Part shown: one piece after another, positions 2,393-6,698 of the stretch
Position numbering within the stretch: position 1 is the stretch's first letter
Layout of the letters: each line of letters opens with the position of its first letter
DNA from: a virus
Taxonomy: Duplodnaviria; Heunggongvirae; Uroviricota; Caudoviricetes
Reading direction: 5' to 3' (one strand)
DNA length: 37,777 nucleotides
Virus record (IMG/VR): IMGVR_UViG_2869924733_000005
Coordinates: 1-37,777 of that record
The notes under the pieces: model-generated
Told to the model about the DNA's origin: nothing
Database searches by the model: none
What the model saw: only the letters and a program-made list of their open reading frames with translations
Program-made: the position numbers and the translations under genes

Positions 2393-2767
2393 ATGCTCAT
2401 AGATTTGGTTTTACCTTACCCGCCGACGGTGAACACTTACTGGCGACGCCGTGGCAGCACATATTTTATCTCGGAGGAGGGAAAGCGTTATCGCCGGGCT
2501 GTGGCGCTTATTGTTCGCCAGCAGCGGCTGAAATTAAGCCTGTCCGGAAGGCTGGCGATAAAGGTGATTGCAGAGCCACCGGATAAGCGTCGTCGCGACC
2601 TGGACAATATCCTGAAAGCACCGCTGGATGCGCTGACGCATGCGGGAGTGTTAATGGACGATGAGCAGTTTGATGAAATCAATATCGTTCGTGGTCAGCC
2701 AGTATCTGGTGGACGTATGGGGGTGAAGATTTACCCCATAATGCATGAAGAGCAGGTCAAAAAATGA
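2393..2767 (+). CDS. rusA: RusA Holliday junction resolvase
   Basis: Motif DKRRRDLDNILKAPLDALTHAGVLMDDEQ matches RusA catalytic region. Confidence 0.85.
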   Translation: MLIDLVLPYPPTVNTYWRRRGSTYFISEEGKRYRRAVALIVRQQRLKLSLSGRLAIKVIAEPPDKRRRDLDNILKAPLDALTHAGVLMDDEQFDEINIVRGQPVSGGRMGVKIYPIMHEEQVKK

Positions 2768-3585
2768 AACTGGAAGATTTACCGAAATACTACTCCCCAA
2801 AATCCCCTGGCCTGACCGATGCATCGGCCTCAACGTCAAAAGATGCGCTGAGTATCACTGATGTGATGGCCGCGCAGGGCATGACACAGAATCGGGCTGA
2901 GATGGGGTTTTCTGCGTTCCTGGGGAAAATGGGCATCAGTATGAATGACAGGGCGCGGGCAACAGAATTACTGGCAGATTATGCACTCAGTCGGTGCGAT
3001 CGTGTGGCGGCGTTGAGAAAACTTCCGGCAGAAATAAAACCGGTAGTGATGCGCATTATGGCTTCGTACGCTTTTGAGGATTATGCCCGCAGCGCAGCGA
3101 GTAAAAAGCAGTGCCCTTGTTGCTATGGGGAAAAATTTATTGAAAGCGTAGTTTTTACAAACAAGGTCCAGTATCCGGATGGTAAGCCGCCGGTATGGGC
3201 AAAGTGTACGAAAGGTGTGTATCCGTCTTACTGGGAAGAATGGAAAAAAGTCAGGGAGGTGGTAAAAGTTGCCTGTCCGGAGTGTGGCGGAAAGGGTGAG
3301 GTTTCCACCGCCTGTAAGGATTGCCGTGGGCGTGGTGTCGCCATTCACCGTGAAGAGTCGGTAAAACGTGGTATGCCTGTTATCAGAGACTGCCAGCGTT
3401 GTGGTGGTCGTGGCTATGAAAGACTACCATCAACGGAGGTATTTAATGCTATATGCGAGGTGACAAACCAGATAACACGCGCGTCATGGGAAAAAACAGT
3501 TAAGAAATTCTATGATGCGCTGGTGACCCGGTTTGATATTGAAGAAGCATGGGCTGAGCGGCAGTTAAAAAAGGTAACTAGGTAA
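2764..3585 (+). CDS. Q: late antiterminator Q (long, zinc-finger-rich type)
   Basis: 273 aa with repeated CxxC/CxxCGG motifs; position immediately upstream of pR'/tR' and lysis genes; overlaps rusA stop (ATGA). Confidence 0.75.
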   Translation: MKLEDLPKYYSPKSPGLTDASASTSKDALSITDVMAAQGMTQNRAEMGFSAFLGKMGISMNDRARATELLADYALSRCDRVAALRKLPAEIKPVVMRIMASYAFEDYARSAASKKQCPCCYGEKFIESVVFTNKVQYPDGKPPVWAKCTKGVYPSYWEEWKKVREVVKVACPECGGKGEVSTACKDCRGRGVAIHREESVKRGMPVIRDCQRCGGRGYERLPSTEVFNAICEVTNQITRASWEKTVKKFYDALVTRFDIEEAWAERQLKKVTR

Positions 3586-3590
3586 CAAGG

Positions 3591-3618
3591 TTGATTTTTC
3601 CGGAATCTGTGGTAAATT
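3591..3618 (+). promoter_or_regulatory. late promoter pR' (-35 TTGATT, 16-bp spacer, -10 TAAATT) with overlapping qut region
   Basis: Sigma70-like hexamers just after Q stop; -10 identical to lambda pR' TAAATT. Confidence 0.45.
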
Positions 3619-3663
3619 CGTCATAACGATGGGCTTTTTATGCCTGACGTTAGAAGAGTTTCT

Positions 3664-3692
3664 ACAACCCGCCGCCGAGCGGGTTTTTTATT
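3664..3692 (+). terminator. tR' terminator (target of Q antitermination)
   Basis: acccgccgccgagcgggt hairpin followed by TTTTTTATT. Confidence 0.5.
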
Positions 3693-3728
3693 GCGGAATT
3701 AATTACGGACCGTTATTATTCTGCTCCC

Positions 3729-3804
3729 GGCCCTTTAGCTCAGTGGTGAGAGCGAGCGACTCATAATCGCCAGGTCGCTGGTTCAAATCCAGCAAGGGCC
3801 ACCA
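3729..3804 (+). tRNA. tRNA-Ile2 (anticodon CAU, lysidine type, reads AUA)
   Basis: Cloverleaf with acceptor GGCCCTT/AAGGGCC, anticodon loop CTCATAA, T-loop GGTTCAAATCC, 3' CCA; closely resembles E. coli ileX. Confidence 0.85.
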
Positions 3805-3904
3805 TCACAAACCGCCATTAGCTTATCAGGAAGAGCAGACGACACGATAACAGGGTTGTTGGTGCGGGGGCGGGTCCCCGATGGCGGTCCATTATCGGTA
3901 TTCA

Positions 3905-3981
3905 GCGTTGTTAGCTCAGCCGGACAGAGCAATTGCCTTCTAAGCAATCGGTCACTGGTTCGAATCCAGTACAGCGCGCCA
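3905..3981 (+). tRNA. tRNA-Arg (anticodon UCU, reads AGA)
   Basis: Acceptor GCGTTGT/ACAGCGC, anticodon loop CTTCTAA, T-loop GGTTCGAATCC, 3' GCCA. Confidence 0.85.
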
Positions 3982-4091
3982 TATTCATTCTTCCAGATTC
4001 CTTCCGGCAGAGCCTTATACTGGAATATACCTGGCTCAGGATATTGTTGAAAATATTATATGTTTGTCAAAAATAAAAGTTCTGTTAAGTA

Positions 4092-4436
4092 TTGATTGAG
4101 TGTTTGTTATACGGTCTAATGGTTTTTTCAGCATTAAATATTTATCATTCATATGGTGTGGGTAGAGTGCATATTGATGAGGCGTCGGGGTGTTTCATCC
4201 TTAGGCAGCGTATTGATATAGTCAATGCAGCACGAGCAAAGGCCTTCAGCCGTTTGACAGTTTTGTTCTGTACTCCTGATCGTCTTTCGGGAAGAGACGT
4301 TATTATTCTGAATAGTGATGCTATTCAGAGGGTTTGCGATGAGTTCATGGTTTCTAATTCAGAATTATTTGCTCTTGTTCAGGAGTACAACAGAATAGCC
4401 AGGACCTGTGGTATGGATTATCACCTGTTACGGTAA
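4092..4436 (+). CDS. hypothetical protein in AT-rich cargo region
   Basis: 114-aa ORF; AT-rich; no recognised family. Confidence 0.35.
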   Translation: MIECLLYGLMVFSALNIYHSYGVGRVHIDEASGCFILRQRIDIVNAARAKAFSRLTVLFCTPDRLSGRDVIILNSDAIQRVCDEFMVSNSELFALVQEYNRIARTCGMDYHLLR

Positions 4437-4937
4437 AAAGTGATTGCTTACTGTTTTTGTGAATGGCATTGCAGCAGCCGGATAATGTCAGTGCTGGCTG
4501 ACGGTGTGCTGGTGGCGGGTGTGGTGGTTGTTGCTTTCCCGTTGCTGAAAAAGAAAACGCCAGACTGTTAGCCGGGTATCAGTTAGCGGGAAAAATTTTT
4601 AAATACTTCACAATTCAGGCGGTTGACTGTTGTCTGGTTTGCGGGGAGTTTGTTAAAAGAAACTGGCATGGTGAATCCCCCTGTGCGGAGGGGCAATCAG
4701 CGAGTAGGTATATGGGATAATCGCGGATTCAGGTGCTGGTACTGAATTCACCGGGAGGCACCCGGCACCATGCACTTCAATAGATTTTCTCCACATTATG
4801 GATATTCTTTCAGAATATCCCACGCAGACTTTGTGTAAATGTTAACAAATGTGCGTTTTATTTGATCTGATTCGCTGTTTGAGCGTCCAAAACAACGGTA
4901 TATATAATCCTTTACTATATGACATATGTGAGGAAAA

Positions 4938-5366
4938 ATGGGTTTTCGTAGCGCATCAATTCTTACGTTGATTATTAGTGGGATTATTATCGGGTGCACT
5001 GATGCTGTATCGACAAATTATCATGACCGTACATCATATTACTCCGATAAAGCAATAGAGACACAGTATGTGAGTTCATCTGAACGTACTTCTGATGTTA
5101 GTGAGGATATCCGTCTGTATGCCCATCAAATCAAGAGCGCCATCGAAAAACAGTTCGGGGATGCGAGTAAGTATTCAGGAAAAGAGTGTACACTGAGAAT
5201 GCATATGGCCCCGAATGGCCTTCTACTGGAGGTTAAAAGAGAAAGTGGAGACCTCGATTTATGTCGTGAAGCGATGAATGCGATAAAGAATGCTGATATA
5301 CCTGCCCCCCCTTCGCCGGAAGTATATAAAGTATTTCAAAATGGGGTGCTGGATTTTAAACCCTGA
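4938..5366 (+). CDS. lipoprotein with TolA C-terminal (domain III)-like fold
   Basis: Lipobox IIGC; C-terminal HQIKSAIEKQFGDASKYSGKECTLRMHMAPNGLLLEVKRESGDLDLCREAMNAIKNADIPAPPSPEVYKVFQNGVLDFKP aligns with remembered E. coli TolA C-terminus. Confidence 0.7.
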   Translation: MGFRSASILTLIISGIIIGCTDAVSTNYHDRTSYYSDKAIETQYVSSSERTSDVSEDIRLYAHQIKSAIEKQFGDASKYSGKECTLRMHMAPNGLLLEVKRESGDLDLCREAMNAIKNADIPAPPSPEVYKVFQNGVLDFKP

Positions 5367-5516
5367 TATTTATTGTTTTGTAATAAACGGTTTCGGCTTA
5401 GGTTTGTTCTGACACAACTACGGCACTGAGCTAAATTTAGCGGATAGTCAGCTCTGAGCCAGTGGCGGACGTAACAACTACTATTGCTGAGATTTTAATG
5501 GATTGAGGAGCAAGAA

Positions 5517-5912
5517 GTGGGATTAAAGAAAATCGTTATGTTGACTTTTTGGGTCGGTTTTGTTGCGGGATGCACACCTTTACACCCTTCAGATTGCCAC
5601 AAAACTACTGCTACAGGTAGTTGCAGTTCAGGACGCTGGGATGATCAGGATGAATGGGGGGCGCAAGCGCGGGGAATCAGAGCTGCAATTAATGCCAAAC
5701 TTGATGAGCCGCATAACTGGAAAGGGAAAAAATGCAGGTTGCATATGGAATTCTCTCAGGATGGCACGGCGTTAAAAATATCTACCAGTAACGGTGATAA
5801 AGCCTATTGCGAAGCGATAAAGTCCGCAGCTCATAAAGCCAAATTTCCGGCCTTCAACAATCCGGAAGTCTACAGAGATTTTCAGAAATCTGGCTTTGAC
5901 ATGCGAGGTTAG
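5517..5912 (+). CDS. lipoprotein, divergent TolA domain III-like paralog
   Basis: GTG start with gaggag RBS; lipobox VAGC; ...GKKCRLHMEFSQDGTALKISTSNGDKAYCEAIKSAAHKAKFPAFNNPEVYRDFQKSGFD shares the same motif pattern as the upstream gene. Confidence 0.65.
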   Translation: MGLKKIVMLTFWVGFVAGCTPLHPSDCHKTTATGSCSSGRWDDQDEWGAQARGIRAAINAKLDEPHNWKGKKCRLHMEFSQDGTALKISTSNGDKAYCEAIKSAAHKAKFPAFNNPEVYRDFQKSGFDMRG

Positions 5913-6163
5913 CTCTTCAATTACTATATCTCATTCATAGCAAACTGACAGATTTGATGATGTTCTATATACGAAACCTGTGATGTCAAGTCTGAGCTAA
6001 TACAAATAAACATAATATCAGAGAAATACATTTTATTAGCTGGCTACGGCGAGCTTTTTATATTGCATCGTCTCCAGCATATATATCAATTAAGGCTCTG
6101 ATTGATGTGTCTGAAAGCCTACACATAATAACTATGCCATCCGTTCCGTGCGGAGGTGAGGCT

Positions 6164-6379
6164 ATGAAATCCATGGACAAAATTTCAACAGGCATTGCCT
6201 ACGGCACCTCCGCAGGCAGTGCTGGCTACTGGTTTTTACAACTGCTCGATAAAGTCACGCCCTCACAGTGGGCAGCAATAGGTGTGCTGGGTAGCCTGGT
6301 ATTTGGCCTGCTGACGTACCTGACAAACCTTTATTTCAAGATTAAAGAAGACAAGCGTAAGGCTGCACGGGGAGAGTAA
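6164..6379 (+). CDS. S: class II holin, phage 21 S-type pinholin with dual-start MKSM
   Basis: [31 protein letters not shown]...[14 protein letters not shown] matches S21; ggaggtgag RBS. Confidence 0.85.
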
Positions 6380-6383
6380 TTCA

Positions 6384-6698
6384 ATGACTCAAAAATATGA
6401 ACTGATTGTGAAAGGGATCCGCAATTTTGAGAATAAAGTTACGGTAACTTTAGCGTTACGGGACAAAAAACGCTTTGACGGTGAAATTTTTGGCCTGGAC
6501 ATCTCGCTGGACCGTGTTGAAGGTGCCGCGCTGGAGTTTTATGAGGCAGCAGCCAGAAGGAGCATCAGACAGGTCTTCCTGGATGTTGCTGCCGGGTTAT
6601 GTGAAGGGGACGAGCTGTTGCCACAAACGCGCCCCTGTTCAGAGGCGCGGTATACCATAAAAATTAACAGTTCTGATAACTCGATTACGGGTTGTTAG
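6384..6698 (+). CDS. hypothetical protein inserted between holin and endolysin
   Basis: 104-aa ORF with ggagag RBS 7 nt upstream; no TM segment; unrecognised. Confidence 0.5.
   Translation: MTQKYELIVKGIRNFENKVTVTLALRDKKRFDGEIFGLDISLDRVEGAALEFYEAAARRSIRQVFLDVAAGLCEGDELLPQTRPCSEARYTIKINSSDNSITGC

Follow-up and report, generated by a model that had tools for sequence, protein, structure and literature searches.

The C-terminal domain of Escherichia coli TolA (domain III, hereafter TolAIII) is bound along its edge strand β3 (A415-K420) by the N1 domain of the filamentous phage protein g3p, by colicin N and by the N-terminus of TolB, in all cases by strand augmentation (PMC4339652, PMC7391070), and the D418P or K420P substitutions in TolA abolish the binding of colicin N, g3p and TolB (PMC4339652). 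Colicin A uses a site composed of strand β2 (L375-P380) and of K368, K379 and K396 (PMC3365938). The affinity of TolA is ~1 µM for colicin N (PMC3365938, PMC4339652), 1.3 µM for colicin A (PMC3365938) and ~40 µM for TolB (PMC4339652). According to PMC6195910, which cites Levengood-Freyermuth 1993 and Wan & Baneyx 1998 on this point, export of TolAIII to the periplasm renders E. coli cells leaky, and it serves as a tool for secretion for that reason. We describe here two adjacent genes, P1 and P2, in the DNA of a lambda-like prophage of the Caudoviricetes (IMG/VR record IMGVR_UViG_2869924733_000005; the whole stretch analysed, of 37,777 nucleotides, is called the window below), which are predicted to code for outer-membrane lipoproteins that each harbour a copy of TolAIII.

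Small outer-membrane lipoproteins that protect the carrier at its envelope are encoded on several mobile elements, including Cor of phages phi80 and N15 and TraT of the F plasmid. Llp of phage T5 is likewise a small mobile-element outer-membrane lipoprotein protecting the cell that carries it, as we propose for P1 and P2. The likeness is functional at most: the only families that P1 and P2 matched in Pfam and PHROGs scans are of the TolA/TonB type, and Cor, Llp and TraT block the FhuA receptor or mating contact, whereas P1 and P2 would mimic a periplasmic hub that is reached after outer-membrane passage. Recombinant periplasmic TolAIII (Levengood-Freyermuth 1993; Wan & Baneyx 1998) is, like P1 and P2, exported and without connection to the motor. 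It is however artificial, soluble, overproduced and of wild-type sequence, whereas P1 and P2 are natural, diverged and, by prediction, lipid-anchored. A further parallel is provided by the FimU-like pilins of phages, which are also diverged phage copies (PMC12952977) of a host envelope part that other phages need. In that case the part belongs to the type IV pilus and the mimic is built into the machine, whereas P1 and P2 would be free, competing decoys. Judging from sequences and structural models, we see about an even chance that P1 and P2 act as unenergised decoys of TolAIII, on which Tol-dependent colicins and filamentous phages would be caught.

A sequence-only reading of this DNA had pointed to two adjacent lipoproteins of 142 and 131 residues, each with a lipobox Cys, and the corresponding open reading frames (ORFs) are indeed found on the + strand, with these cysteines at positions 20 and 19, respectively. 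The parts of the two genes and of their products are the following.

4938..5366, + strand: P1 gene, ATG start, 142-residue lipoprotein precursor
P1 residues 1-20: signal peptide, lipobox IIGC, Cys20, Thr at +2
P1 residues 21-53: linker, poorly conserved
P1 residues 54-142: TolA domain III, ends with GVLDFKP (APLDFKP in TolA)
5505..5510, + strand: Shine-Dalgarno sequence GAGGAG of P2, 6 nt 5' of the GTG, read from the sequence
5517..5912, + strand: P2 gene, GTG start, 131-residue lipoprotein precursor
P2 residues 1-19: signal peptide, lipobox VAGC, Cys19, Thr at +2
P2 residues 20-44 (window 5574-5648): linker PLHPSxCHKTTATGSCSSGRWDDQ, Cys/Trp/acidic, highly conserved
P2 residues 45-131: TolA domain III, ends with SGFDMRG

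The P1 precursor begins with MGFRSASILTLIISGIIIGC followed by TD (MGFR...GIIIGC, then TD) and that of P2 with MGLKKIVMLTFWVGFVAGC followed by TP (MGLKK...FVAGC, then TP). Both thus have the lipobox [LVI][ASTVI][GAS]C and a residue other than Asp at +2 by which we defined outer-membrane lipoproteins, and the Thr at +2 predicts, by the +2 rule, that both reach the outer membrane rather than staying in the inner membrane. The start of P2 is placed at Met8 by the Prokaryotic Genome Annotation Pipeline (PGAP) of RefSeq; the residues KKIV upstream of Met8 are kept across genera, which supports the longer reading from the GTG codon. The P2 linker, modelled by AlphaFold2 (AF2) at low confidence, contains two extra cysteines and an acidic W-x5-W motif, also conserved across genera. 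Its Trp spacing is off by one residue from that of the TolB boxes of colicins, and we make no claim of a likeness to them. A 14-nt direct repeat brackets the P1-P2 module, with one copy at 4912-4925 (TTACTATATGACAT), 12 nt before the ATG of P1, and the other at 5921-5934 (TTACTATATCTCAT), 9 nt past the stop codon of P2. The copies are 86% identical and may mark the boundaries of the module or be due to chance.

Both proteins score well above the gathering cut-off (25 bits) of Pfam PF06519 (TolA_C), with 82.6 bits for P1 (E 2e-23) and 54.6 bits for P2 (E 1e-14). In phmmer searches against all PDB sequences, the top matches were E. coli TolA domain III entries only (chains 1s62, 3qdp, 2x9a and 1tol; E ~1e-27 for P1 and 5e-9 for P2), and the alignments of both proteins reach the last residue of TolA. 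Identity to TolA 334-421 amounts to 60.5% for P1 and 33.8% for P2. The cysteines of the C363-C388 disulfide of TolA are kept as C84/C109 in P1 and C73/C98 in P2, in columns that are invariant in a 26-sequence alignment. In the AF2 models, the predicted local distance difference test (pLDDT) values are >90 for the cores (residues 54-142 of P1, 45-131 of P2), and the N-terminal regions are disordered. Foldseek superposes the P1 core on 2x9a_B with a template modelling (TM) score of 0.96 and a root mean square deviation (rmsd) of 0.6 Å, and the P2 core on 3qdp with a TM score of 0.92 and an rmsd of 1.0 Å; both have the α/β order a1-b1-b2-a2-a3-b3 of the solved TolAIII structures. The fold, the disulfide and the C-terminal edge strand are thus common to P1, P2 and E. 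coli TolA domain III (1S62, 3QDP, 1TOL, 2X9A). The similarity to TolA is far beyond chance, and sequences and models together identify P1 and P2 as putative lipoproteins with a complete, bona fide TolA domain III. The resemblance of the C-terminal domains to that of TolA, which the sequence-only reading had noted, therefore held in profile, sequence and structure comparisons, and the motif string that it quoted fits P1 (QIKSAIE, LCREA, PPSPEVYKVFQNGVLDFKP).

The elements of TolA that contact its ligands compare as follows.

Strand β3: APLDFKP in TolA, GVLDFKP in P1, SGFDMRG in P2 (strand-compatible, no proline)
Strand β2: LLDIKP in TolA, LLEVKR in P1, ALKIST in P2
K368: K in TolA, H in P1, E in P2
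K379: K in TolA, K in P1, S in P2
K396: K in TolA, K in P1, H in P2

We took the absence of Pro at the equivalents of D418 and K420 as the mark of a ligand-competent β3 strand, following PMC4339652; neither P1 (L138-D139-F140-K141) nor P2 (F127-D128-M129-R130) has Pro at these positions. From these comparisons, P1 could plausibly bind both classes of ligands, and P2 only those that use β3. The two proteins are unlikely to be equivalent, with a colicin A site that appears largely kept in P1 and lost in P2. The TolA tyrosine called 'Y352' in published work has been tied to TolB binding by genetic screens, and the affinity for TolB of a Y352H/V407E double mutant is about six-fold weaker. It corresponds to Y353 in our numbering, a one-residue shift that also fits V407. 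This tyrosine, the last residue of the KFY motif, is replaced by Gly in P1 and by Asp in P2.

On these grounds, the way in which the decoys would operate can be pictured. P1 and P2 would be cargo genes ('morons') of the prophage, coding for TolA domain III copies that are anchored in the outer membrane and face the periplasm, with Sec export, lipidation and Lol sorting expected from the lipobox and the non-Asp residue at +2. The TolAIII domain would hang by a linker of 25-35 residues from the inner leaflet of the outer membrane, at the place where native TolAIII meets its ligands. The translocation domains of group A colicins and the N1 domain of g3p, once in the periplasm, would need a TolAIII coupled to the TolQR motor; by docking instead on the more abundant motor-less copies through the same β-strand augmentation, the invaders would stall during import. 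This would make the lysogen tolerant to Tol-dependent bacteriocins and/or Ff/If1-type phages. The paralogues would probably cover different ligands, P1 having an E. coli-like β3 strand as well as a mostly preserved site for colicin A, and P2 keeping only the β3-type edge and adding its conserved disulfide-loop linker. Given that colicins N and A bind TolA at ~1 µM and TolB at ~40 µM, a moderate level of decoy could intercept the invaders without stalling Tol-Pal, all the more so if the loss of the KFY tyrosine further weakens TolB binding. Cells with periplasmic TolAIII are reportedly tolerant to Tol-dependent colicins. The support for the decoy role is indirect: the β3 edge is kept, an outer-membrane location is predicted, P2 is under purifying selection, the genes also travel on plasmids, relatives adjoin genes of filamentous phages, and periplasmic TolAIII makes cells leak. 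Homology, fold, signal features, selection and distribution are shown here, and location, ligand binding, phenotype and timing of expression are inferred.

P1 is named 'tolA: cell envelope integrity protein TolA' by RefSeq/PGAP (window 4938-5366; L001 6139-6567), an annotation that has spread to hundreds of genomes. Unlike E. coli TolA, however, P1 and P2 have neither the N-terminal, TolQR-interacting membrane anchor nor the helical domain II, and their N-termini are lipoprotein signals instead. They are encoded by a prophage, between the Q gene and the holin gene, rather than in the tol-pal operon, and their KFY tyrosine is replaced. Because the membrane anchor and domain II are missing, P1 and P2 are not TolA, and the PGAP label of P1 is a misleading over-call. 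Of the equivalog profiles NF007065 and TIGR02794, the two proteins cover only positions 293-386 of 387 and 265-362 of 362, respectively. P1 scores 107.8 with NF007065, below the cut-off of 213, and 75.6 with TIGR02794, above the cut-off of 59.45; it passes the latter through its C-terminal part alone, which may explain the name. P2 is under the cut-offs of both.

The simple name 'TolA' given to P1 would also suit fragments of tolA generated by illegitimate recombination, non-functional and annotated only for the domain, all the more as some database copies of P1 are frameshifted at a C7 homopolymer (window 5305-5311, codons PAPPSP). The proteins concerned, P0010-P0017 and P0036, lose their last ~17 residues, including the β3 strand, exactly at this tract. 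However, a 92-base probe over the tract is identical in 726 of the 791 complete E. coli genomes that contain P1, and three sampled 98.9% matches correspond to substitutions, with no change in length. We therefore rejected phase variation at this site and consider that the frameshifts are probably assembly errors or rare events. Selection also argues against debris. Comparing P2 with its plasmid, Enterobacter and Serratia relatives gave ratios of nonsynonymous to synonymous substitution rates (dN/dS) of 0.04-0.11 (dS 0.5-1.1, dN 0.03-0.08), which shows strong purifying selection. The P2 linker, with dN/dS of 0.01-0.08, is as strongly constrained as the domain and is therefore more than a tether. 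P1 evolves faster than P2, with dN/dS of 0.25 for the domain and 0.57 for the linker relative to a 66%-identical variant. With overall dN/dS values of 0.04-0.25, lipoprotein signal peptides and ribosome-binding sites in both P1 and P2, and dozens of family clusters (at 50% identity) harbouring lipoboxes, the debris explanation is largely refuted by the selection and distribution data, and we leave it only a very slim chance.

A phmmer search with P1 against 1.84 billion cluster representatives yielded 333 relatives. Among the top 146 new clusters, 88 consist of proteins shorter than 200 residues. In this set, a lipobox was found in 43 short clusters of at least 100 residues, none of which has Asp at +2, and in several other short clusters the signal peptide is of the plain Sec type, so that these TolAIII proteins would be soluble in the periplasm. 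P1 and P2 are hence no phage oddity but belong, as one branch, to a large family of TolAIII proteins that are exported and stand alone. We compared the conservation, column by column, of 67 short exported and 58 long, full-length-type TolA matches; both sets were chosen by similarity to P1 and are hence biased, and with this reservation the KFY motif (351-353) has values of 0.74/0.84/0.71 in the long and 0.22/0.40/0.27 in the short proteins, the β3 strand 0.55 and 0.59, and D418 0.34 and 0.64, respectively. The β3 strand thus seems to be conserved as well or better in the short forms, and the KFY motif relaxed.

Full-text literature searches did not bring up any TolAIII decoy encoded by a phage or a plasmid, in agreement with the impression recorded in the sequence-only reading that no phage-encoded one had been characterised. 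A PADLOC scan of P1 and P2 gave no match, and a search of the BFVD viral structures gave no match to their fold at E <= 1e-3. Both proteins are contained in PHROG 5772, annotated as 'unknown function'. Two mentions in the literature were discarded: a 'TolA' of strain EDL933 induced by ciprofloxacin (PMC11125564), which is listed as a tail fibre protein and whose supplement has no link to the P1/P2 family, and the 'tolA' of a paper on O157:H7 in soil, which is the host gene. As the domain similarity is already visible in automatic annotation, what is new is the function proposed here and the extent of the family.

The 1.2-kb P1-P2 stretch is present at >=99% identity in 773 of 5426 complete E. 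coli genomes (~14%), including strain 55989. Among 50,697 deposited phage genomes, it was found in one, mEp460_ev081. In IMG/VR, 38 loci have P1 at 99-100% identity, with P2 and then the holin gene following wherever the sequence is long enough. The endolysins encoded downstream in these loci are of two different types, and the module therefore moves between mosaic lambdoid phages. Variants of P1 (65-74% identity) occupy the same Q-to-holin slot on their own in 23 IMG/VR loci.

P2 relatives are found on ~600 plasmids, at ~87% nucleotide identity. Two IncI-complex plasmids were inspected (IncI1/B/O and IncK2/Z; L002 and L014); in both, the annotated gene starts 67 nt past the nikB relaxase gene, and in the IncK2/Z plasmid it precedes trbC. 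The homology between plasmid and prophage copies starts only 30 nt upstream of the P2 start codon, and they therefore share no promoter. The gene is not mentioned in the papers on I-complex plasmids that used transposon-directed insertion-site sequencing (TraDIS). On plasmid pO157 of O157:H7, a P2 relative with 88% amino acid identity lies between hok/psiAB and toxB (L013 5995-6426). P2 relatives are also orphan genes at differing chromosomal sites in Enterobacter kobei, Citrobacter and Klebsiella oxytoca, and another was found at the edge of a prophage remnant, beside umuDC-like genes. In Serratia marcescens, the orphan homologue adjoins a GmrSD_N (DUF262-type) and HEPN pair (L007 8957-10736), which we read as a defence-like neighbourhood. 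Altogether, the distribution looks like that of a host-protective accessory gene.

A link with filamentous phages emerged from three TolAIII homologues with signal peptides only. Of these, one lies on a contig whose short length allows no judgement, and the other two, which belong to separate 50% clusters, border inovirus gene sets on the side nearest to host genes. P0191 (L021 6001-6333, non-lipoprotein) adjoins a pIV-type secretin gene (phrog_1012, E 6.5e-101), and P0273 (L023 7001-7345, non-lipoprotein) is located between host yadGH-like ABC transporter genes and genes for a secretin, Zot and a small ORF. Their common C-terminus, Y[ED]VFKNAPL[DY]FKP, has 13-14 of the last 17 residues identical to those of TolA, for 44-51% identity elsewhere, and their KFY motifs are replaced. 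This suggests that inoviruses also carry TolAIII copies. IncI plasmids make pili that are used by phage If1, and the best structural match of P1, PDB 2x9a, is the complex between TolAIII and the g3p protein of If1.

Some of these data would also fit a re-use of the TolAIII fold for a different partner, with the resemblance to the ligand sites of TolA being merely ancestral. Such proteins might, for example, block an envelope route used by tailed phages, conjugation or contact-dependent toxins, or modulate envelope physiology or virulence. P2 shares no more than 34% of its residues with TolA and no longer has the colicin A lysines; the constraint on its linker (dN/dS 0.01-0.08), with the extra cysteines and the W-x5-W motif, is not what a pure tether would need; and P2 relatives occur in the transfer region of the inspected IncI-complex plasmids and beside toxB on pO157. 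However, P1 is 60% identical to TolAIII with near-identical β3 and β2 strands, the inovirus-adjacent relatives keep the C-terminus of TolA nearly letter for letter, and none of our searches suggested an alternative partner, so that we hold this re-use to be unlikely. Returning to the decoy proposal, we tentatively extend it to the family, with a somewhat less than even chance of being right: exported motor-less TolAIII proteins would be a widespread, hitherto unrecognised envelope immunity of mobile elements (lambdoid prophages, IncI-complex plasmids, pO157 and inoviruses). In the prophage described here, the diverged tandem paralogues would extend the range of ligands, and owing to the loss of KFY the TolA-TolB cycle of the host would be spared.

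The genetic environment of P1 and P2 bears on when they would be made. The gene order in the window is DUF968, RusA, Q, terminator-like hairpin, tRNA(CAU), tRNA-Arg(UCU), an ORF of unknown function, a small RNA (sRNA) of the STnc100 family, P1 and P2, followed by genes for a P21-type holin, DUF1327, lysozyme and Rz/Rz1.

2764..3585, + strand: Q-type antiterminator, Pfam Antiterm, E 8.5e-55
3666..3685, + strand: terminator-like hairpin with T-run, just past Q, in the tR' position
3729..3981, + strand: two tRNA genes, with a CAU anticodon (3729-3804) and Arg-UCU (3905-3981)
4092..4436, + strand: ORF of 114 residues, TTG start, PHROG 2873 (unknown function), E 4.6e-64
4637..4827, + strand: homologue of the STnc100 sRNA (RF02076), 114.5 bits for a gathering cut-off of 47, E 1.3e-25
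4879..4908, + strand: sigma-70-like TTGAGC-18-TATAAT, 10 of 12 consensus positions, ~30 nt 5' of the P1 ATG
6107..6379, + strand: P21-S-type holin, first lysis gene directly 3' of P2, Phage_holin_2_1, E 1.8e-35

The location of P1 and P2 between Q and tRNA genes and the lysis cassette, noted in the sequence-only reading, was thus recovered, and the site is a late-operon cargo slot extending from Q to the holin gene. Of the decoy interpretation made there, the parts concerning lipoproteins, TolA domain III and the cargo slot were borne out, the interception of invaders being the part that we grade as even. The G+C content of the P1-P2 region is 0.38-0.43, for ~0.50 in the flanks. By analogy with Shiga toxin (Stx) phages, a late transcript starting 3' of Q would extend across P1, P2 and the lysis genes. 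The sigma-70-like site, the best match within 3500-6500, is a possible moron promoter active in the lysogen. We detected no terminator flanking the P1-P2 module. The expression of P1 and P2 is probably dual, from the late transcript and possibly from a promoter of their own.

Some observations were made on the neighbouring genes. The STnc100 homologue sits between the tRNA genes and P1 and ends ~50 nt before the promoter-like site. The tRNA at 3729-3804 is called Met by ARAGORN (anticodon CAT) and tRNA-Ile by PGAP for an identical gene, a discrepancy that fits a lysidine-modified Ile2 tRNA of the kind present in the ileZ-argN-argO sets of Stx phages. The 114-residue ORF accompanies the Q-P1-P2 region in several IMG/VR prophages, and where a prophage has the P1 variant, the ORF instead occurs, as a copy of 59% identity, downstream of P1. 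In related prophages, the P1 variant is upstream of a gene for a protein with SASA, DUF1737 and DUF6645 domains, followed by DUF1378. We take the former to be a NanS-p-like protein, typically encoded downstream of stx in Stx phages.

The same locus invites the reading that P1 and P2 sabotage Tol-Pal. As lipoproteins made in bulk from the late transcript, they would titrate the TolB N-terminus or another TolAIII partner, uncouple Tol-Pal and loosen the outer membrane, thereby aiding spanin-mediated lysis or the release of vesicles or virions. In keeping with this, both genes lie between Q and the holin gene on the same strand with no terminator detected between, and the succession of P1, P2 and holin is kept throughout the 38 IMG/VR loci as far as the sequences extend. 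The leakiness of cells with periplasmic TolAIII, as reported in PMC6195910, and the use of the β3 site by TolB (PMC4339652, PMC7391070) also fit. Yet P2 relatives are under strong purifying selection as chromosomal orphans, on conjugative plasmids and on pO157, with no lysis genes nearby, and the phage is already equipped with holin, endolysin and Rz/Rz1 genes. In addition, the affinity of TolAIII for TolB is weak (~40 µM; PMC4339652), and both P1 and P2 have another residue in place of the tyrosine tied to TolB binding, in a motif that is relaxed family-wide. We therefore consider sabotage of Tol-Pal improbable.

Several points nevertheless weigh against the decoy proposal. P1 and P2 are part of a late operon, directly upstream of the holin gene, and may therefore be made mainly during lytic growth, when there is little to gain from protecting the cell. 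The promoter was called only by its likeness to the consensus, and we detected no terminator on either side of the module. Since a single colicin molecule is enough to kill, a decoy would have to be abundant to have an effect. The TolB N-terminus shares the β3 site (PMC4339652, PMC7391070), so that a decoy might disturb Tol-Pal. All three cation-π lysines of the colicin A site are lost in P2, and the conservation values come, as said, from sets biased towards P1. Lastly, pESBL, a classical IncI1 plasmid, lacks the P2 gene and has trbC directly after nikB. We accordingly discarded it as a member of the IncI backbone and consider it as accessory rather than part of the core IncI1 backbone.

If the decoy proposal is true, envelope defence would gain a mechanism in which a periplasmic hub domain is decoyed, rather than an outer-membrane receptor masked. 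With P1-P2 in about one in seven complete E. coli genomes, and P2 relatives on the pO157 plasmid inspected and on many IncI-complex plasmids, such proteins could shape colicin competition in the gut. They could also affect the susceptibility of plasmid-bearing strains to pilus-specific filamentous phages, as well as how well therapeutics based on colicins or phages work. The misleading product name of P1, 'cell envelope integrity protein TolA', could be corrected. Finally, natural TolAIII variants may separate the binding of invaders from that of TolB and would then be useful probes of Tol-Pal.

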